Assembly: GCA_040007375.1 (NCBI GenBank) | Contig: JBDTVD010000003.1 | Span: 1-36,990 of the forward strand | Direction: 5' to 3' | Source of the DNA: Bacteroidota bacterium | Lineage (GTDB): Bacteria; Bacteroidota; Bacteroidia; AKYH767-A; OLB10 | DNA: 36,990 nt | In this document: positions 117 to 29,675 of the stretch, in pieces | How the letters are laid out: every line of letters begins with the position of its first letter | How positions within the stretch are numbered: the stretch's first letter is position 1 | Translations under genes and position numbers: made by a program | Notes under the pieces: generated by a model | Database searches by the model: none | Told to the model about the DNA's origin: nothing | The model's input: only the letters and a program-made list of their open reading frames with translations

Positions 117-1085
117 ATGAATTGGCTGGATTATATTTTTGATGATAGAGTTGCTTTTGAGGAGAAGGCATTATCTGTTTTTCAATATCAAGTTAAAGAA
201 AACAAACTATATGCTGATTATATACTTGCTTTAAATACTAATATTGATGAAGTAAAACGTATTGAAGATATTCCTTTCCTTCCTGTTTCCTTTTTCAAAA
301 CGCATAAAGTAATTTGTGGTGATGAAAATTTTCAAAATGCATTCACCTCCAGCGGAACAACAGGTGATACATCGTCGCATTATATAAAAGACCTTGCTCT
401 TTACGAAAGCAGTTTTATGAAATCGTTTGAACAGTTTTATGGTGATATAACAGAGTATTGCTTTCTTGCCTTACTTCCTTCTTATCTCGAACGCGAAGGT
501 TCATCGCTTGTATATATGTGTCAGCATCTGATTGAGAAAAGTAAACATCCGTTAAGTGGATTTTATCTTCACAACAGGAGCGAATTATATCAATCACTTC
601 AACAATTAAAAAAGGAAAATCAAAAAACAATTCTGATCGGTGTTACTTATGCTTTGCTTGATCAGGCAGCAGATTTTCCAATGGATTTTCCGGAGTTAAT
701 AATTATGGAAACAGGAGGGATGAAAGGCAAACGAAAGGAAATGATCAGGGAAGAGATTCATGATATTTTAAAAGCTGCATTTCATGTTAATGCTGTTCAT
801 AGTGAGTATGGTATGACGGAATTATTATCGCAGGCCTGGTCAGCCGGAAATGGTGTGTACATTTGTCCGGCATGGATGAAACTGCTGGTACGGAATGTAA
901 ATGATCCGATGGAAGTAAAAAGTAAAGGTTCCGGTGGAGTGAATATTATCGATCTTGCCAATATATATTCCTGTTCTTTCATTGCAACACAGGATCTGTG
1001 CATAATAAATGATGATCATTCTTTTACCATCATCGGCAGATTTGATAACAGTGATCTGCGTGGTTGTAATCTGATGATTTTATAA
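117..1085 (+). CDS. LuxE-like acyl-protein synthetase / acyl transferase (ANL superfamily)
   Basis: FTSSGTTG adenylation motif, IMETGGMKG, SEYGMTEL, and C-terminal GR..SDLRGC. Confidence 0.85.
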   Translation: MNWLDYIFDDRVAFEEKALSVFQYQVKENKLYADYILALNTNIDEVKRIEDIPFLPVSFFKTHKVICGDENFQNAFTSSGTTGDTSSHYIKDLALYESSFMKSFEQFYGDITEYCFLALLPSYLEREGSSLVYMCQHLIEKSKHPLSGFYLHNRSELYQSLQQLKKENQKTILIGVTYALLDQAADFPMDFPELIIMETGGMKGKRKEMIREEIHDILKAAFHVNAVHSEYGMTELLSQAWSAGNGVYICPAWMKLLVRNVNDPMEVKSKGSGGVNIIDLANIYSCSFIATQDLCIINDDHSFTIIGRFDNSDLRGCNLMIL

Positions 1086-1090
1086 AAAAT

Positions 1091-1125
1091 AGTATCAAGA
1101 CATTAGTATCAAGTATCAAGACTAA
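1091..1125 (+). repeat. Heptamer tandem tract AGTATCA/AGACATT/AGTATCA/AGTATCA/AGACTAA
   Basis: Five 7-bp units starting 5 nt after the luxE-like stop. Confidence 0.85.
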
Positions 1126-1141
1126 AAACAGAATTTTAAAA

Positions 1142-1363
1142 ATGTCGAACAGAAGAAGAATCATAATAATAATGGTATCTGTAATTTCAGGAACCGTACT
1201 TTCCTTTTTTATTTTCAAAGCCAGAAAAGGTCCTGCCGGATTAACCAATGACGATTATTCAACCCTCATCACTAATTTTATTTTTTCACTGGCAATCATT
1301 GTCGGTGTAGGTTTAATGTTTGCATGGAAGAAAAATAAAGAAGAGAAGTCTGACAGGAATTAG
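1142..1363 (+). CDS. Small hypothetical membrane protein (2 predicted TM helices)
   Basis: 73 aa ORF with two hydrophobic stretches and basic termini, filling the gap between two + strand genes. Confidence 0.65.
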   Translation: MSNRRRIIIIMVSVISGTVLSFFIFKARKGPAGLTNDDYSTLITNFIFSLAIIVGVGLMFAWKKNKEEKSDRN

Positions 1364-1394
1364 TTATTTTGGTGCACTTATAAACTCAGTCACC

Positions 1395-2660
1395 GTGAAA
1401 AATCTTCTACTTGCAGTTCTATTCTTAACATCTTTCAACTCTTATAGTCAGTCCTCCTCTCCCTGCAGTCTGTGGCCACGTTACGATCAGGAAATATTTC
1501 CTTCCGTTGATACCACTTATAATGTTATTTATGGCAGCAATTCAGATTACCAGGGAGTGAACCAGATTCTGAAGATGGATATTTATCAGCCTTCAGGAGA
1601 TACATTATCACAACGGCCACTAATAATTTTTGCTCATGGAGGAAGTTTTGTTGCGGGCGATAAAGCAAATACTGACCAGATAAATCTCTGCACTCATTTT
1701 GCAAAAAGAGGATATGTAACAGCCACTATTAATTACCGTTTGGGAATGTTTCCTATCAATGGAGCAACTGCAACGGATGCTGTTTACCGTGCCTGCCAGG
1801 ATATGAAAGCTGCCATTCGTTTTTTCAGAAAAGATGCTGCAACCACGAATTTATATAATGTTGATCCAACTGTTATTTTCATAGGAGGAACATCTGCCGG
1901 TGCATTCACTGCTTTGCACACTGCATATATGAATACGTATGCTGAACTTCCTGCAACAATTGATACTTCTGTTATTGGCAACCTGGAAGGAAACAGTGGT
2001 AATCCGGGATATTCTTCAGAAGCCAATGCAGTGATTAATTTATGTGGTGCATTAGGAGAATCATCATGGATTGTTCCCGGAGATATTCCACTGTGCAGCA
2101 TGCATGGAACTGCTGATGGTACTGTTCCTTATTCTTCTCAAATGCTATATCTCTTCGGTATTGTTCCGATTATGGTAGTGGATGGCAGTTATGCAATTCA
2201 TAATTATATAAATACTTTCAGTCATCCTGCAACTATGTATACATGGTATGGTGCTGATCATGTTCCTTATGATGGAGGAACAGCAAGTGCTATTGCTTAC
2301 CTTGACACGACATTGCGGTTTGTAAGTAATTTTCTTTACACTTACTCCGGATGTATTCCTTCGGATCCAAACCCTTTAGCCAATACAGTTTATACAACCA
2401 CTGGTATCGGTTCTCAAAGTGCAGCATTGTCTGTAACTGCATCAAGTCCAGCCAGTGATTTTATCAGGCTGAACCATGTTGGTGAAAAAGGAATTGTAAG
2501 GGTATATGATGAAGCCGGACGAAAAGTGACCTCCTTAGCTGTTGATAATGCCTCCGAAACATTTAATATTTCCTGCTCTAACTACCAGAATGGAATTTAT
2601 GCAGTTCATTATGAGACGGTTAAAGGTGTTGAAATTCTTAAGGTAGTGGTCTGTCATTAG
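1395..2660 (+). CDS. Secreted alpha/beta hydrolase (carboxylesterase/lipase) with probable T9SS C-terminal sorting domain
   Basis: Signal peptide from GTG 1395. HGGSF oxyanion motif, GTSAG nucleophile, HGTAD and DHVP. C-terminus with VRVYD..GR and GIYAV. Confidence 0.85.
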   Translation: MKNLLLAVLFLTSFNSYSQSSSPCSLWPRYDQEIFPSVDTTYNVIYGSNSDYQGVNQILKMDIYQPSGDTLSQRPLIIFAHGGSFVAGDKANTDQINLCTHFAKRGYVTATINYRLGMFPINGATATDAVYRACQDMKAAIRFFRKDAATTNLYNVDPTVIFIGGTSAGAFTALHTAYMNTYAELPATIDTSVIGNLEGNSGNPGYSSEANAVINLCGALGESSWIVPGDIPLCSMHGTADGTVPYSSQMLYLFGIVPIMVVDGSYAIHNYINTFSHPATMYTWYGADHVPYDGGTASAIAYLDTTLRFVSNFLYTYSGCIPSDPNPLANTVYTTTGIGSQSAALSVTASSPASDFIRLNHVGEKGIVRVYDEAGRKVTSLAVDNASETFNISCSNYQNGIYAVHYETVKGVEILKVVVCH

Positions 2661-2675
2661 GAAGATAAAAACGAT

Positions 2676-2683
2676 TATTTTTG
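2676..2683 (+). promoter_or_regulatory. Bacteroidota housekeeping -7 promoter element TAnnTTTG (TATTTTTG)
   Basis: Exact consensus match 5 nt before the desaturase ATG. Confidence 0.6.
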
Positions 2684-2688
2684 CCTCG

Positions 2689-3756
2689 ATGGCAAGAATA
2701 ACATTCAACAATAAAGTGAGTCCGTTTACTGACACACTCAAGGCACGAATTCAACAATATTTCGAAAACAATAAACTGGAGCTGACGGGAAACCGACATC
2801 TTTTTGTAAAAACTATAATCCTCGTTAGTTCATTAATTTTGATCTACGTTCTTCTGGTATTTTTCACTCCTCCTGTTTGGATTTCTATAGTGCTGTGTGC
2901 ATTACTGGGAGTTAATTTTGCGGCAATAGGATTTAATGTAATGCATGATGGTGCGCATGGAAGTTATTCCGGCAAAAAAACTATCAATGAAATTATGGCT
3001 TATTCTCTCAACCTGATGGGAGGAAGTTCATATATATGGAAAATTAAACATAATCTTATACATCATTCATTTACCAATGTAGAAGGTATGGATGATGATA
3101 TTGATATCAGACCATTTATGCGTGTGAATGAAGACCAGCCACGTTACTGGTTTCATCGTTTTCAGCATATATATTTTTTGTTGTTGTATGGGATGTCGTA
3201 TTTCCTGTGGGTATACTTTCAGGATTTTCAAAAATATTTCTCTAAAAAAATCGGTGACACTCCATTACGAAAAATGAGTGTTAAAGATCATTTCATATTC
3301 TGGATCAGTAAACTTGTATATATATCTGTTTTTGTTATTATTCCTATTTTTAAAATAGGTCTTGCTGATACATTGATTGGTTACGGTATTGCGGTTTTTG
3401 TATGTGGTGTAATGATAGCTGTTGTATTTCAGCTGGCTCATGTAATTACTGAAACTTCATTTCCACGTCCAGATGAAAATACCTCAAAAATTAATAATGA
3501 GTGGGCGGTTCATCAATTGGAAACGACAGCTAATTTCTCTACCCATAATAAATTTGTAAGCTGGTTGGTTGGCGGTCTTAATTTCCAGGTGGAACATCAT
3601 CTTTTTCCAAGAATAAGTCATGTACATTATCCAGCTATCAGTAAACTGGTGCGTGATACGTGTGCTGAATTTAATGTGGTTTACCTGGAACACCCTACAG
3701 TGATAAGTGCAGTTCGGTCGCATATAAAGCACCTTAGAATAATGGGAAGAAGATAA
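2689..3756 (+). CDS. Membrane fatty acid (acyl-CoA/acyl-lipid) desaturase
   Basis: His boxes HDGAH, HNLIHH and QVEHHLFP, plus several TM segments. Confidence 0.93.
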   Translation: MARITFNNKVSPFTDTLKARIQQYFENNKLELTGNRHLFVKTIILVSSLILIYVLLVFFTPPVWISIVLCALLGVNFAAIGFNVMHDGAHGSYSGKKTINEIMAYSLNLMGGSSYIWKIKHNLIHHSFTNVEGMDDDIDIRPFMRVNEDQPRYWFHRFQHIYFLLLYGMSYFLWVYFQDFQKYFSKKIGDTPLRKMSVKDHFIFWISKLVYISVFVIIPIFKIGLADTLIGYGIAVFVCGVMIAVVFQLAHVITETSFPRPDENTSKINNEWAVHQLETTANFSTHNKFVSWLVGGLNFQVEHHLFPRISHVHYPAISKLVRDTCAEFNVVYLEHPTVISAVRSHIKHLRIMGRR

Positions 3757-24240: not shown

Positions 24241-25224
24241 CTAGTTCTCCGGTATTTCAGGATCAGCGTTTATAAAATCAGCAGGATCAAAATCCAAAAT
24301 GGGAGCGACGTTTGTTCTTTTTCCAAACTTATACCTAATCATCACTCTAACAAATGCAGAGGAACTTATATCATATTTCTCTTCACCAAGCTGTACCCAT
24401 GATCGACCTGAAATTCCAATATCCGGTTCTACAGAAAGTTGATAAGATATTTTTAATTTCATCTTAAAGGCCAACTGAAATTCTTTATGACGGAACTTTA
24501 CATCTTCAAGAACAAGACTGTCATTAACAGGAAGATTTACAGTATACATTCCTCCAAAAGGCCGTAGTGAAACTCCTGCAGCAAAACGGCGGCTGAAAAA
24601 ATGTGTGTACTGAACATAAGCAGGAAACATAAATGTGATAAGATCTTCTTTCAATGGTCTCCAACTGATTCCTGCAAGAGGAAGAATTTTGTTGCTTCCA
24701 AAAACGGATGTATATACTGCTCCCAGTGTATATGAAAACTGATCATTGCTTCTATGTCTCCAGAATAAACTTCCATTTACATAGGTTCCTTTGAAATTGA
24801 AAAAAGATGCGTAATCATGTGCATTTATTCCCTGTACATTCAGCATATATAAATTACGAAGTCCTTTGGAATATATAAAGCTTCCTCCAAGCCGTAATCG
24901 TAATAATTGTAAGCTGTCAGGAATAAAATCACCTGCAGGTTGTAAATAAGATACTGCACCTTGCAACGTAACTCCCACCAAAGGTGTATTTCCTGTTGAT
25001 GTTAACCAGTCTTTCCCACGATATAACGGAATATTAAATGATCCTTCTCCACGATAATAGCCAAACTTATTTTCAAAGGTATCTACCTGGCTGGCTATTC
25101 TGTCTTCAGTATTTATTTTAATCCACGATGATAACAATGGATGTGGTCCGGGCCATACCTGCGACTGCGATTGAATCGTAATTAAAACAAGGAAAGCAGA
25201 AAGAATTAAGCTATTTTTGATCAT
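24241..25224 (-). CDS. Hypothetical outer-membrane beta-barrel protein (DUF6268-like)
   Basis: Signal peptide, amphipathic strands, and LGAVY...LPLAGISW pattern. Confidence 0.65.
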   Translation of the reverse strand: MIKNSLILSAFLVLITIQSQSQVWPGPHPLLSSWIKINTEDRIASQVDTFENKFGYYRGEGSFNIPLYRGKDWLTSTGNTPLVGVTLQGAVSYLQPAGDFIPDSLQLLRLRLGGSFIYSKGLRNLYMLNVQGINAHDYASFFNFKGTYVNGSLFWRHRSNDQFSYTLGAVYTSVFGSNKILPLAGISWRPLKEDLITFMFPAYVQYTHFFSRRFAAGVSLRPFGGMYTVNLPVNDSLVLEDVKFRHKEFQLAFKMKLKISYQLSVEPDIGISGRSWVQLGEEKYDISSSAFVRVMIRYKFGKRTNVAPILDFDPADFINADPEIPEN

Positions 25225-25263
25225 CAGTAATTAACGGTAAAAGTAACTGATTGTTTTTTTACA

Positions 25264-25608
25264 ATGCTTCCTGAAAAAAAAGAAAATAGCGAACTGTCAA
25301 CACATCGTTTTAATAAGGAAATTATTGAAGCGGTAATTGCTCAATTGGAAAAGGATGTAATGATGTGTGGAGGTGATCTTAAGATTACTGAAGCATCATA
25401 CACTGATCTGGAATTATTAAAGGAAGAAGTTCAGAAGTATCTTTCATCTGTATCAGATAAAAATCCCACTTTGTTATTTAACCTGTTATACCGGATTGAT
25501 ATTCCACAAAAGATGCTGGATCAAAAAAACGGAAGCTTAGGAACGCTGGTATTGAAAAGAGAATTGACGAAAGTGCTGATCAGGATTTCTTATAAGAAAA
25601 GTGATTAA
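25264..25608 (+). CDS. Conserved-looking hypothetical protein
   Basis: 114 aa with QLEKD...LFNLLYRIDIP...LKREL.KV pattern, which resembles a small Bacteroidota family. Confidence 0.75.
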   Translation: MLPEKKENSELSTHRFNKEIIEAVIAQLEKDVMMCGGDLKITEASYTDLELLKEEVQKYLSSVSDKNPTLLFNLLYRIDIPQKMLDQKNGSLGTLVLKRELTKVLIRISYKKSD

Positions 25609-25635
25609 ATGATTAGGTGATTAAGTAATTAGGTG
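25601..25635 (+). repeat. Octamer tandem tract GTGATTAA/ATGATTAG/GTGATTAA/GTAATTAG
   Basis: Four 8-bp units, the first containing the stop codon of the 25264 ORF. Confidence 0.8.
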
Positions 25636-25650
25636 TATTGTCAGAAATGA

Positions 25651-25704
25651 CTACTCTTTTAATTCAAAATTCTATCACAAATAAATTTATAACTCGTTCA
25701 TCAT
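25651..25704 (-). pseudogene. Degenerate duplicate of the lptB 3' end
   Basis: About 43/56 identity by hand alignment to 26209-26264, with exact blocks ttaattcaaaattct (15 nt) and gttcatcat (9 nt). Ends in NFELKE* versus lptB NFELRK*. Confidence 0.8.
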
Positions 25705-25736
25705 TGAGGGAGATATTGTTGAGGCGGCCAATATAA

Positions 25737-26204
25737 TTATTGACAAATAAATCTGAAAACTGTCATTGGTCTGGGTTCATCCTCATATATATATTTATCC
25801 ACTAAATCTGAATACATATTTTCCGGAGGCTTTCGGTATTGCTCATAGATTTTAATGCTATAGAACTTTACCTCTGTTCCTGATGTACATTTGTTAAGAA
25901 CCTGAATATAAGAGTCAGGTAATTTACTTCCGGTTACATGAAGTATTGTGTCGACACTATTTGAAGCATCATGAATAGAGACCTCATAGGACACAATCCT
26001 TACTGTATCTTTTCTTAAATTTTTACCAGAACGATATTTGACGGATAACTCCTTAACCATAAAGACAGGGAAGTCTGGGTGACTATGAGGATTTCTTGGT
26101 AAAAATATTATATCTGGAAGAGGGATATTATCAGTTTTAGGGGACTCCTGAGCTGATGAAGCTTTAAAAAGAAATATAAATACGATTGCCAGGAATCGGT
26201 TCAT
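25737..26204 (-). CDS. Hypothetical secreted protein, possibly GldM/PorM C-terminal-domain-like
   Basis: Signal peptide. The pattern PLPD...RIVSYEVSI...VTGSKL...LNKC.SG.EVKFYSIK recalls the last GldM domain (recognition only). Confidence 0.6.
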   Translation of the reverse strand: MNRFLAIVFIFLFKASSAQESPKTDNIPLPDIIFLPRNPHSHPDFPVFMVKELSVKYRSGKNLRKDTVRIVSYEVSIHDASNSVDTILHVTGSKLPDSYIQVLNKCTSGTEVKFYSIKIYEQYRKPPENMYSDLVDKYIYEDEPRPMTVFRFICQ

Positions 26205-26208
26205 TCAA

Positions 26209-26934
26209 TTACTTTCTTAATTCAAAATTCTGTCCGAGATAAACTTTACGTACCTGTTCATCATCGGCCAGCTCCTGTGCTGTTCCTTCTTTTAAAATTT
26301 TTCCTTCAAATAAAAGATAAGCACGATCGGTTATTAATAATGTTTCATGCACGTTGTGATCGGTAATTAATATACCAATGTTTTTTTCTTTCAAACGAAA
26401 TACAATAGACTGAATATCTTCCACTGCAATTGGATCGACTCCAGCAAATGGTTCATCAAGCAAAATAAATTTAGGATTAACAGCAAGTGCGCGCGCAATT
26501 TCCGTACGTCTTCTCTCACCACCTGATAATAAATCACCACGGCTTTTACGGATGCGTTGTAATCCGAATTCACTTAATAAACTTTCCAGCGTTGTATCCT
26601 GTTCTGCTTTACTCTGTGCAGTCATTTCAAGAACTGCTTTTATATTATCCTCAACAGTAAGTTTTCTAAAAACAGATGCTTCCTGAGCAAGATAACCAAT
26701 ACCACGTTGTGCACGTTTATACATTGGAAGTGATGTGATCTCTTCATTATCCAGAAATATTCTTCCTTCATTAGGTTTGATCAATCCAACTGTCATGTAA
26801 AAAGTAGTTGTTTTACCAGCACCATTTGGTCCAAGCAATCCAACAATTTCTCCCTGCTTTACATTAATGGAAACATTGTCCACTACTGTGCGGCCTTTAT
26901 ATCTTTTAACTAAATTATCAGATCTTAATAGCAT
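26209..26934 (-). CDS. lptB: LPS export ABC transporter ATP-binding protein
   Basis: [38 protein letters not shown] and ITDHNV. Confidence 0.97.
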
Positions 26935-26935
26935 C

Positions 26936-26970
26936 TACGAATACGAATCTGTACGAATTTACGAATGAAT
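26936..26970. repeat. TACGAA(T) tandem tract immediately upstream of lptB
   Basis: Four TACGAA cores within about 30 bp, 1 nt from the lptB start codon. Confidence 0.75.
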
Positions 26971-26990
26971 TATTTCCTGAGAGAAATTAA

Positions 26991-27054
26991 TTATTAATTA
27001 TTCATTTTTCATTATTAATTAAAATACAAGTTGCAGGGTTGCTCTGAATCCGAA
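26991..27054 (-). repeat. Direct-repeat copy of the DUF5686 gene 3' end (36 bp) plus four heptamers
   Basis: 27019-27054 matches 27165-27200 at 34/36. Heptamer tract 26991-27018 parallels 27137-27164. Offset is 146 bp. Confidence 0.93.
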
Positions 27055-27136
27055 ACAATCGAATGAATAATTAAAAATTGAATACATCTAAATTAATAAG
27101 TAAGGACGAATGGTTAATATTTAAAAACAAATTTAA

Positions 27137-27164
27137 TTCTTAATTCTTAATTATTAATTCTTCA
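27137..27164 (-). repeat. Heptamer tract (TTCTTAA)2 TTATTAA TTCTTCA abutting the stop codon
   Basis: Four 7-bp units directly adjacent to the stop at 27165. Confidence 0.85.
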
Positions 27165-29675
27165 TTAAAACACAAGTTGCAGGCTTGCTCTGAATCCGAA
27201 CTGTGTTGGCACCGTTGCTTTTTCTCCAAACCGTTCTTTATATAATATTTTGTAGGGTTCATCTATATAAGTTAACCTCCAGATAAAATCAACACGCAGC
27301 ACCTTCAATATATTTTCCACTCCTGCACTTACTTCTGTATATGGTTTTGTTAAAGATGAAAACGCATTTGGGTTGGTTAATATTTCACGGTTAGCATTAC
27401 TCAGACTTCCACTTATTGCTTTAATACCCACAATTTCTCTCCATTTCAACTTGCGCATCAGTGGAACTTTATCAAAGAAGAAACCATCGAAGTGATGTGT
27501 TGCAAATACGCTGACATAATAATCACTTACAAATTCAAAATAGTTCATCATGTTGAATGCTGCATAATCATAAAAATAACTTTCATTTCCCGGATGTACT
27601 TCCAGCAATGGATAGGGAATTGTTCCCCAGATTCTTCCTGCCTGAACAACATAATAGGTATAACCAAATGGTTTGATTTTAATCTGGTCGTCAATTTTGA
27701 TAGTGACTTTATGATAATCAAAATCACTTTTCAGAAAATCTTTTATTCCTGCAACATAATTAACCTGCAATGTTGGATATGCACTTCCAATACTGATCCT
27801 GTCCGATCTTCCGGTAACAAATTTTTCACGATAGAGAAAACGGGTATATAAGGAAACCTCTGTGGAACTGATAGTGTTTTTAATTGCAGTTTTTTCATCA
27901 TTGGTGTAATACGAATAATTCAAACTGCCCAATGGATCAAAATCAGTATGTGTAAGAGTAATTTTATTGGAGAAACCTGGAAGCCATTCAATTTCATACC
28001 ATGCTTTCTGTTGCTCCATGTGTGTGAGTTTATCAGCCGGAGATCGACGGAATAAACTTGTTAATATATTATCATCCTGAAATGCATTATCACTTTGACC
28101 TAATTGCTGCACATCATTTTTATATCCTGCACCGGCAAACTGTCGCGGCTTTTTAGAAAGCATATATTTTATTCCGCCACCATATTTAAATTCTTCATCC
28201 TTTGTACCATAAGCAAGATAACTGCTCAGTTGCAATCGTGTGCTGAAATTATCACTTGTTCGTCCGCCAAAACGAAAACGAGCACCTTCCACTGCATTAA
28301 AACTAAAGAAGGTATAATAAGGTCCAAGTTCAAATTTTCCAATCTCTTTGTATCCTGTAAAAAATAAAGTAATGATATCAACATAACTTTTAAAAGCAGG
28401 CAATGTTTTAATAGTATCTACCATGTGATAGATTTTCTGTTCGCGTTCATTGAGACTATCATGTCGTGAATCTTTCCAGAAATCAACTGTTCGGTTTAAC
28501 GCATCATCAACCACCACTATATTTTCTGATCCATCAAAAATAGCATCGCTTATAGGTTGATTAAAAATAAATCCTTTGTATGATGTAGATTTTCTGCCAA
28601 TGAAACCCATTCCATCTTCCTTAGCAGCAAAATCAATTACAAGCATATCCTTGTTCTGCATCCATTGCTTACCATCAACATAGGTATATTCCTGCACAAT
28701 GGCCATGTCGTCAATCCAGTTGATATTTGCATCCTGTGCAATACGCATCTGTATTTTTTTTACAGCCCAGGTAGTATCGTTCACCCAGAAATCACCAGTG
28801 AAAGTAAGCTCCTGCGGACGTCGTGGTTTGAATTTTAATTTATAGCACCACTGATTGTCAATTGTAGTGCTGTCGATGAGATAATAACGATAATATAATA
28901 AACCAAGATCACTGATCGGACTTACGAAAGCTTTATTAAATATATCGATATAATTCTGATATATATTAACGCGTTGATACATGTCGCCAAGAAACTGTGT
29001 AACAGAAGCATTTTCCAATCCGGAAATTTTACTGGCTTTAATAATTTCTTTTTTATTTTTCGGATTGTTGCGGAAATAAAAATCAGAAAGTGTTTCTGAA
29101 ATAAAGAATGGAAGAAAAGGTTTGCTGTTTGTTTCTGTGCTGTCAACGTTATCCCAGATAAATGCAAATGGCTTTAATAATTTTTTGCCTTTGAATTTCT
29201 CACTGATGTTGGTAAGATCAAATTCTACTTTATTATATACTTCATATTGATACGACTGCAAATTGGAAGGATCATTTTCATCTTTATGTTTAATAATATT
29301 CCTTACTATAATATTTGCAGGATTTTCACCTGCTTTTATTTCAACTTCATGCAGATCAGACTGACTTGATTTCAGGGAGAAGTTAATTGTTTGAGCTTGT
29401 CCTTTTCTTATCCGGAGAGCAACTGTTTTGTATCCGATGAGTGTACATATTAAACTGTCAGATGGCGTTGAAGTGATGATGCGGTAATTACCATCCATAT
29501 CAGTATTGGTTCCGGCCTGCATTCCTTTCATCACAACAGTTGCAAAAGGAATCGGTTCATTGGTAAGTTCGTCAGTTACCTTTCCACTGATATTGGTTAC
29601 CTGCGAAAATCCGGTTAGTGTAAGTAAACAAAGCAAAAGCAGAGGAAGGATCCTGTATTGTAAAAGATGTTGCAT
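27165..29675 (-). CDS. DUF5686-type outer-membrane protein with N-terminal carboxypeptidase-like regulatory domain
   Basis: ISGKVTD..TNEPIPFATV, GTNTDMDGNY, YQYEVYNK, SPIS..YYRY, NAVEGAR.R.GGRT, GVENILK and terminal Phe. Confidence 0.85.
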   Translation of the reverse strand: MQHLLQYRILPLLLLCLLTLTGFSQVTNISGKVTDELTNEPIPFATVVMKGMQAGTNTDMDGNYRIITSTPSDSLICTLIGYKTVALRIRKGQAQTINFSLKSSQSDLHEVEIKAGENPANIIVRNIIKHKDENDPSNLQSYQYEVYNKVEFDLTNISEKFKGKKLLKPFAFIWDNVDSTETNSKPFLPFFISETLSDFYFRNNPKNKKEIIKASKISGLENASVTQFLGDMYQRVNIYQNYIDIFNKAFVSPISDLGLLYYRYYLIDSTTIDNQWCYKLKFKPRRPQELTFTGDFWVNDTTWAVKKIQMRIAQDANINWIDDMAIVQEYTYVDGKQWMQNKDMLVIDFAAKEDGMGFIGRKSTSYKGFIFNQPISDAIFDGSENIVVVDDALNRTVDFWKDSRHDSLNEREQKIYHMVDTIKTLPAFKSYVDIITLFFTGYKEIGKFELGPYYTFFSFNAVEGARFRFGGRTSDNFSTRLQLSSYLAYGTKDEEFKYGGGIKYMLSKKPRQFAGAGYKNDVQQLGQSDNAFQDDNILTSLFRRSPADKLTHMEQQKAWYEIEWLPGFSNKITLTHTDFDPLGSLNYSYYTNDEKTAIKNTISSTEVSLYTRFLYREKFVTGRSDRISIGSAYPTLQVNYVAGIKDFLKSDFDYHKVTIKIDDQIKIKPFGYTYYVVQAGRIWGTIPYPLLEVHPGNESYFYDYAAFNMMNYFEFVSDYYVSVFATHHFDGFFFDKVPLMRKLKWREIVGIKAISGSLSNANREILTNPNAFSSLTKPYTEVSAGVENILKVLRVDFIWRLTYIDEPYKILYKERFGEKATVPTQFGFRASLQLVF

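Follow-up and report, generated by a model that had tools for sequence, protein, structure and literature searches.

We analysed a stretch of 36,990 nucleotides (nt) from a soil Bacteroidota bacterium (GCA_040007375.1, contig JBDTVD010000003.1, positions 1 to 36,990, read on the forward strand), called the window below, and found that lptB, the gene for the ATPase of the lipopolysaccharide (LPS)-export ATP-binding cassette (ABC) transporter, is followed at once by a 558-nt insertion that is specific to this lineage. The insertion carries a single open reading frame (ORF) of 155 amino acids (aa), called the cargo ORF here, and ends with a decayed second version of the lptB 3′ terminus (~56 nt), while lptB itself is intact. 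The source genome (G000) is a fragmented assembly of 467 contigs and is 88% complete.

A 558-nt insertion between lptB and its former downstream neighbour

The lptB gene was located in 23 of the 24 relatives searched. Two of these, G001 and G002, are the two other species of the genus and share the neighbours of lptB with the window, namely the DUF5686 gene upstream and orf114 and the DUF6268 gene downstream, and in both there is nothing between lptB and orf114 (in G001 the lptB stop is about 20 nt away from the end of orf114). A three-way DNA alignment with MAFFT gave a single clean gap of 558 nt, which extends from just after the lptB stop to the end of the decayed copy. Since the site is empty in each of these two species, we regard the 558 nt as an insertion in the lineage of the window. 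An insertion of roughly 560 bp behind lptB had been claimed in an original prediction made from the letters of the sequence alone; the alignment bears this out, and the comparison of gene order downstream of lptB, which that prediction had named as a check, yields an empty allele in each of the two species.

Elsewhere, neither the cargo ORF nor the repeat was found. A six-frame protein search detected the ORF in none of 40 relatives, it was seen at none of the 23 other lptB loci, and a DNA search of 82 genomes of the family returned only three matches of 25-45 nt with E values of 0.005-0.01, which we took as chance. A copy of the gene's own 3′ end was likewise seen within about 1.5 kb downstream at none of 21 other lptB loci (scores 17-24, versus 16-31 for reversed-query controls). 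The identity of lptB between the window and G001 at third codon positions is 56%, whereas the two copies of the repeat are still ~80% identical to each other; therefore, the event is younger than the split of the species.

The repeat itself is well above the background of AT-rich DNA. A repeat search detected a core of 37 nt (25652-25688 and 26210-26246, 81% identity, spacing 558), and the gapped local alignment of 25652-25704 with 26210-26264 reached a score of 52, with 45 of 56 columns matching, 7 mismatches and 4 gap columns. The alignment includes exact blocks of 15 nt and 9 nt, and the decayed copy is shorter by a net 2 nt. When the 128-nt intergenic stretch was shuffled with its dinucleotides preserved and aligned with the whole of lptB, the scores averaged 19.9 (standard deviation 2.5, maximum 32) and none of the 2000 shuffles reached 52, so the significance check that the original prediction had proposed was passed. 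Its count by hand, 43 of 56, was slightly low, and its coordinates were right within 1 nt. Read in the frame of lptB, the decayed copy contains GGA>TGA and CAG>TAG, two deletions, one insertion and TAA>TAG at the end, and the repeat ends at the stop codon; the two new stops and the frameshifts had been described correctly beforehand. Sequence and ORF table also agree with the place first given for the 155-aa ORF, between the two copies and 4 nt past the lptB stop.

The repeat probably continues 6 nt further upstream, judging from the hexamer CGGCCA, which is present at 25725-25730 and at 26265-26270 across what would be a 20-nt insertion in the decayed copy. This extension was found post hoc; with a frequency of 6e-5 per position in the genome, 0.0017 occurrences of the hexamer are expected in the 27 available positions.

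The assembly of this region was compared with Logan contigs of metagenomes. In three runs of a single rhizosphere study there are contigs (matching 26059-26322, 26051-26346, 25658-25904 and 25477-25682) that cross both junctions and show 0-1 differences from the window, which argues against a misassembly; the runs possibly come from the assembly's own sample and are thus not independent occurrences of the insertion. A joint that skips the 558 nt was not found in the contigs of the three runs, where the depth is 2-5 and rare variants are dropped from contigs. One contig of the X2 run matches the orf114 region (25437-25619) with 18 differences in 183 nt and ends before the insertion; it suggests that a related species is present in the sample.

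On the minus strand, the DUF5686 gene (27165-29675) is followed by lptB, the cargo ORF and the decayed copy, beyond which 43 nt, including an 8-nt-period repeat, lead to the stop of the convergent orf114 and then to the DUF6268 gene. The product of the host gene matches TIGR04406 (LPS_export_lptB) with 374.5 bits, where the cut-off is 240, and its residues 3-239 cover profile positions 2-239. This full-length match above the equivalog cut-off identifies it as a true LptB, which is 93% identical in aa sequence to that of G001 and 88% to that of G002.

Table 1. Features of the lptB locus in window coordinates, and repeats of gene ends in the source genome (G000; C, contig; L, locus)
Feature	Position	Strand	Basis or description
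lptB, LPS-export ABC transporter ATPase, intact, host gene of the insertion	26209..26934	-	TIGR04406, PF00005
Functional upstream copy of the direct repeat: last ~56 nt (perhaps 62) of the lptB coding sequence, to the stop codon	26210..26270	-	local alignment; hexamer extension 26265-26270
Spacer of 4 nt (TTGA on the minus strand) from lptB stop to ATG of the ORF	26205..26208	-	sequence reading
Cargo ORF, 155 aa, signal-peptide-like N-terminus MNRFLAIVFIFLFKASSAQ	25737..26204	-	ORF table
32 nt from ORF stop to decayed copy; 25725-25730 (CGGCCA) possibly a piece of the repeat, 25705-25724 possibly a 20-nt insertion into the copy	25705..25736	-	
Decayed downstream copy of the repeat, with in-frame TGA and TAG, indels, and TAG where lptB has its terminal TAA	25652..25704	-	
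AT-rich 8-nt-period repeat (GTGATTAA/ATGATTAG...), between decayed copy and orf114 stop, overlapping that stop	25601..25632	.	repeat search
orf114, 114 aa, convergent neighbour kept within the genus; marks the ancestral downstream flank of lptB	25264..25608	+	
lptB event	C3 (window)		repeat ~56 nt; cargo 155-aa ORF; spacing 558 nt
DUF5686 event	C3 (window), 26984-27054 and 27130-27200		repeat 71 nt, 86% identical (61/71); spacing 146 nt, 75 nt between copies
GT2 glycosyltransferase event (L039)	G000:C182 2327-2425 and 3766-3863		repeat 99 nt, ends exactly at the stop; cargo 361-aa Fic/DOC-family gene on the opposite strand
DUF1801 event (L040)	G000:C405 1442-1519 and 2470-2546		repeat 78 nt; cargo 275-aa protein with type IX secretion system (T9SS) C-terminal sorting domain
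DUF559 event (L041)	G000:C286 3643-3742 and 3764-3859		near-tandem, 100 nt: gene 3′ end plus 39 nt downstream; 21-nt spacer

The convergent neighbour, orf114, adjoins the lptB stop in both other species, with an aa identity of 86% in G001 and 51% in G002, and has no match in Pfam or NCBIfam. When the 23 lptB loci of relatives were compared, it was detected in these two species alone, always convergent on lptB. The 8-nt-period repeat is outside the lptB repeat and is multi-copy, as 25609-25660 was matched at 11 other places in the same genome; next to the event on C182 there is a visually similar repeat, which has many matches in G001 and G002 too. The remaining window is ordinary chromosomal core, with genes for KdsD-like, TatC, RecQ, photolyase and sugar-nucleotide enzymes.

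A near-orphan gene kept open beside a decaying gene end

The decayed copy provides a measure of how fast unconstrained sequence has changed at this locus since the event, with ~0.18 substitutions and 0.036 indels per site. On the premise that the ORF arrived along with the duplication of the lptB end, we simulated the decay of 155 codons, and the frame was still open in 2 of 5000 simulations at the rate of the decayed copy, in 1 of 5000 at half that rate, and in 134 of 5000 when only substitutions were allowed. Because the ORF stayed open while the adjacent copy gained two stops as well as indels, the comparison indicates that the cargo ORF is a maintained gene under purifying selection. Its codon-usage score of 0.092 is at the 7th percentile of the 492 ORFs of 130-200 aa; lptB scores 0.328. 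Low expression and foreign origin would both fit this low value, and orf114, which is conserved in the genus, scores similarly (0.095).

How the gene may be expressed was considered from the sequence around it. The codon that precedes its ATG in the same frame is TGA, and the frame is thus closed upstream. A scan for sigma-70-type promoters found no site upstream of the start, the sole good match on the minus strand being inside the ORF (26134-26107). The -7 promoter motif of Bacteroidota is TAnnTTTG, and there is no match to it on the minus strand between 25737 and 27128; this absence is weak evidence, because the window as a whole contains the motif 47 times where 49.6 are expected and thus shows no enrichment of it. 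The terminator scan returned 0 sites, Rfam gave no match at E <= 1 in 25000-27500, and the 3′ region of the ORF showed no fold beyond that of shuffled sequences (z-score -0.10). The most economical reading of these results is that the cargo is plausibly expressed by read-through from the lptB transcript, and the promoterless, co-transcribed gene of the original prediction is plausible in the same sense.

The cargo protein has no match in Pfam or NCBIfam and no paralogue in its own genome at E <= 1, and its gene is single-copy. A word-indexed search of 5.8 billion proteins retrieved only the protein itself, and an exhaustive HMMER search of 1.84 billion representatives gave one credible relative, P0002 (230 aa, E 1e-10), which has one close relative of its own, P0004. 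The pairwise alignment includes 41 identical residues of 119 and involves the C-terminal half of P0002. Another candidate, the 662-aa tandem-repeat protein P0003, was set aside as spurious, since its 19 matched residues were spread over 9 stretches. The cargo ORF is therefore a near-orphan, with one distant pair of relatives among the 1.84 billion representatives. The genomic context of P0002 and P0004 was not found in the genome and metagenome contig collections searched.

Several comparisons suggest a fold like that of a GldM domain. The N-terminal half of P0002 has a sub-threshold match to GldM_3rd (E 5e-4), and the ESM Atlas model of the cargo ORF has structural neighbours in clusters annotated as GldM_4th, with TM scores of 0.54-0.60. 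Comparison with hhalign of a three-protein profile with 29 GldM_4th domains, taken from the GldM genes of relatives, gave a probability of 56% and an E value of 1.1e-4 over 60 columns in a sensible register. The cargo ORF alone had no hit to PF12080 (GldM_4th) even at E <= 10, and a genome-wide search with PF12080 detected true GldM only. AlphaFold2 models of the cargo ORF had a mean confidence (pLDDT) of 45.0 for the sequence alone and 44.2 with a 3-row alignment, too poor for a fold search. The N-terminus is hydrophobic and, judged by eye, ends in ...SSAQ. On balance, we consider it fairly likely that the cargo is a secreted protein with a domain like the C-terminal (4th) domain of GldM.

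In relatives from the same order, PF12080 is also hit by short stand-alone ORFs (144-252 aa). The cargo protein resembles such stand-alone GldM C-terminal-domain proteins of Bacteroidota in size (~140-250 aa), in its putative signal peptide and in a predicted strand-strand-helix-strand core, but it differs from them in being below every Pfam threshold, with the modest profile-profile probability and the low model confidence given above.

Origin of the insertion and the other gene-end repeats of the genome

We lean, by a small margin over even, toward a recombination anchored in lptB with exogenous DNA from a related lineage, after which the displaced gene end decayed and the selected, GldM-like ORF was read through from lptB. 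After the split from the sister species, DNA with one small gene would have entered at the end of lptB. The donor DNA would have come from a related, unsampled lineage, with an lptB 3′ end joined to the ORF, and this end would have served as the homology anchor. Integration may have been homologous on the lptB side and illegitimate on the other, as in homology-facilitated illegitimate recombination (HFIR), or it may have occurred by a single crossover of a circularised fragment; either would leave an intact lptB, then the ORF, then a displaced second copy of the last ~56 nt. The displaced copy, without function, would decay neutrally, and the ORF would be kept open by selection and most likely read through from the lptB transcript. 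The architecture expected from such a displacement is present at lptB, where an intact gene is followed by new DNA and by a displaced direct copy of its 3′ end, with an empty site in relatives.

The route through homology at the lptB end is suggested because two more single-gene insertions in the genome, those of the Fic gene and of the cargo with the T9SS tail, are flanked by repeats of the 3′ end of the upstream gene. They emerged from a scan of 2121 ORFs in which the terminal 63 nt of every ORF were compared with the 3 kb that follow it; this gave 8 matches at a score of at least 34 and none for reversed-query controls. Three matches were excluded: C263 is a low-complexity 8-mer repeat, C349 a tandem paralogue, and C237 is weak (34 nt, score 39). 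The events behind the GT2, DUF1801, DUF559 and DUF5686 genes are listed in Table 1 together with that of lptB. The T9SS-tailed cargo of the DUF1801 event has a 43%-identical homologue elsewhere in G002.

The Fic insertion behind the GT2 gene has an empty site in G002 and is the most informative about origin. Its two copies of the gene end differ by 8 synonymous substitutions and 1 non-synonymous substitution, and by one frameshift. Such an excess of synonymous changes (8/9) has P = 6.7e-6 under random substitution and P = 0.0038 under an expectation of 40% synonymous changes, which is our own estimate for an in-situ duplication with one constrained copy. At the sites comparable by eye the functional copy keeps the state of G002, and therefore the changes occurred on the lineage of the displaced copy; the 8/9 synonymous changes thus indicate that this copy had been working coding sequence elsewhere, in a different lineage, before it was joined here, as recombination with DNA of a related lineage predicts when the gene end is the homology anchor. 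The original prediction had the cassette replace the terminus of lptB. By analogy with the Fic event this gains support; at lptB itself, where the copies differ by 1 synonymous and 6 non-synonymous substitutions and by 3 codons with gaps, the pattern is one of plain neutral decay, which says nothing about origin, and the copies are not polarisable.

The event behind DUF5686 duplicated the last 36 nt of that gene and 35 nt past its stop into the spacer between DUF5686 and lptB; the spacer of G001 is 81 nt long and has no such copy. The lptB insertion had been thought to look older than this event, a view that is not upheld by the numbers (43/56 in the earlier count versus 61/71, Fisher p = 0.25). 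In the metagenome contigs of the three runs, the summed word depth is 309-3737 at 27124-27197 and 7-30 at 26933-26966 and 26986-27023, with 0-10 in the surroundings; these AT-rich stretches have many loose ends into unrelated sequence and look like short repeats common to many organisms of the sample.

A number of results weigh against recombination with a donor at lptB. No donor state, with the ORF attached to lptB, turned up in the protein, genome or contig collections searched, and the substitutions between the lptB copies are uninformative on origin, as described above. A downstream copy at 0 of 21 other lptB loci gives no sign that the gene is a recurrent target. Repeats of gene ends are also not enriched: at a score of at least 40 they were found for 7 of 2121 gene 3′ ends, for 1 of 2182 5′ ends, searched upstream, and for 11 of 2265 mid-gene segments, the last being mostly internal repeats and paralogues by nature and not individually inspected. 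Because mid-gene segments give as many local repeats, we make no claim of a process specific to 3′ ends or of a dedicated mechanism.

Further results that count against a donor would suit an event in situ, in which a staggered double-strand break or a switch of the replication template at the lptB end, with overhang fill-in and capture of a stray fragment, would produce a ~56-nt target duplication around an ORF-bearing filler. The genome encodes a Ku homologue. Comparison with G001 and G002 revealed no breakpoint or mosaic block in lptB, which is closest to G001 over its final 180 nt (identity 0.86-0.87), and the two lptB copies share two synonymous states (GAT, TTA) without counterpart in G001 and G002, a pattern equally compatible with duplication in place. 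The spacers that separate the repeats of gene ends, 21 nt for DUF559, 75 nt for DUF5686 and then about 500, 950 and 1340 nt, cover a range from 21 nt to 1.3 kb that break repair with captured filler could give. However, 8/9 synonymous differences in the parallel Fic event are unexpected for duplication in place, the filler would need to have nearly the exact size of the ORF, beginning 4 nt before its ATG and ending 6-32 nt after its stop, and there is no source copy of the cargo in the genome. We consider an in-situ event the strongest competitor of recombination with a donor, although on the whole unlikely.

It is still less probable that the locus is the remnant of a site-specific integrative element that targeted the 3′ end of lptB, with an imitation of this gene end in its attachment site, and that has since shed its integrase and the bulk of its body, so that a single cargo gene remains between attL and attR. 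Elements that integrate at gene ends usually betray themselves by a direct repeat of the 3′ end of the target gene that goes no further than its stop codon, and the repeats of lptB and of the GT2 gene both end exactly at the stop. Nevertheless, no mobile-element domain, recombinase or transposase was detected in the 30 window ORFs scanned, and the 88%-complete genome has only two PF00589 matches (302 and 327 aa), both on other contigs (serine recombinases were not searched for). The 4 nt and 32 nt that flank the ORF leave no room for arm sites, and the scar is absent from the 21 other lptB loci. The presence of end duplications at each of two neighbouring genes, DUF5686 and lptB, is a further argument against site specificity.

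Other kinds of mobile unit fare no better. The repeat search found no inverted repeats that join the ends of the cargo, and there is no attC-like hairpin, with no inverted repeat in 25609-25736 and a fold z-score of -0.10. The locus does not resemble a transposon, insertion sequence (IS) or miniature inverted-repeat transposable element (MITE), as the duplication is ~56 nt, the cargo is single-copy, and transposase and terminal inverted repeats are lacking. The term cassette, as it was first applied to this locus, is therefore not supported where it means a mobile unit: the genome has one copy of the cargo, which was detected in 0 of 40 relatives and 0 of 82 family genomes and comes with no inverted repeats, attC-like hairpin or recombinase. 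An insertion is supported, a mobile cassette is not.

On a broader and rather speculative view, uptake of single genes without a recombinase could be routine in this Bacteroidota lineage: short fragments that include the terminal 50-100 nt of a conserved host gene would be integrated by homology at the end of that gene, and the repeats would allow loop-out and re-entry into other genomes, making up a passive, homology-addressed cassette system with the ends of housekeeping genes such as lptB as attachment sites. We regard this as doubtful.

Loss instead of gain is very unlikely. If the ORF and repeat had been ancestral to the genus, recombination between the two lptB ends could have removed them in G001 and G002, and direct repeats of 56 nt could support such a precise, traceless deletion. 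However, the loss would be required in both other species, the ORF is in none of the 40 relatives or 82 family genomes, and the duplication post-dates the split, given ~80% identity between the copies and nearly saturated synonymous sites (56%) between the species. Chance similarity in AT-rich DNA, or a metagenome misassembly that joined strain variants, has a negligible probability despite the fragmented and incomplete assembly, since none of the 2000 shuffles reaches the score, a strain variant would not be expected to show the indels and ~20% substitutions of the copy, and unitigs of three runs cross both junctions.

Relation to known gene-end insertions

Insertions at the ends of genes have been described for several systems, and a narrow literature search, which does not show absence from print, brought up no account of insertions that target lptB or of such scars at housekeeping genes of Bacteroidota. 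Integrative elements and their integrase-less derivatives, the cis-mobilizable elements (CIMEs), insert in the 3′ end of protein or transfer RNA genes. The lptB insert is like them in that it is flanked by a direct repeat of the target 3′ end and the gene stays intact. It differs in having neither integrase nor arm sites, in its small cargo of ~480-500 nt, in being single-copy and in a target that is not recurrent. With the gene cassettes of integrons the locus shares a tight, putatively promoterless single ORF that would be read from an upstream promoter, but it has no attC-like hairpin or integron integrase, and its flanking repeat is sequence of the host gene.

The closest parallel is the displacement of C-terminal ends and effectors at Rhs, contact-dependent inhibition (CDI) and type VI secretion system (T6SS) effector-immunity loci, for which Jackson et al. 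2009 are cited by Kirchberger et al. 2017. In the latter paper, HFIR, in the sense defined in PMC3240628, is proposed as the route (PMC5361080). In this model, a conserved upstream coding region anchors the incoming DNA, the new piece comes to stand beside a gene that is intact, and what had been the resident 3′ part is shifted downstream and left as an orphan remnant (PMC5361080), all of which the lptB locus resembles; the Fic event of this genome also shows the expected two-allele signature. On the other hand, lptB is a housekeeping and presumably essential gene, and its end would have been replaced by a functionally identical end and not by a variable toxin tip. The locus has one event and no array, its cargo is single, predicted to be secreted and does not look like a toxin, and the two-allele signature is not demonstrable at lptB.

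The locus thus offers a clean, datable case in which a chromosome gains a single, apparently foreign gene directly behind the presumably essential lptB, which remains undamaged. The decayed copy is a built-in neutral clock that points to selection on the neighbouring orphan ORF, which is rarely demonstrable for a gene without orthologues. The Fic event adds direct sequence evidence that scars of this kind can come from joining the gene ends of two lineages, and it carries the displacement model beyond polymorphic toxin loci, to ordinary housekeeping genes. In practice, the value is in annotation, where a real gene can be told from a pseudo-fragment, and in a searchable signature of gene gain without a recombinase. 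Compared with these systems, the lptB scar belongs to a known class, the gene-end duplication scar of recombinational gene gain, and involves no new machinery.

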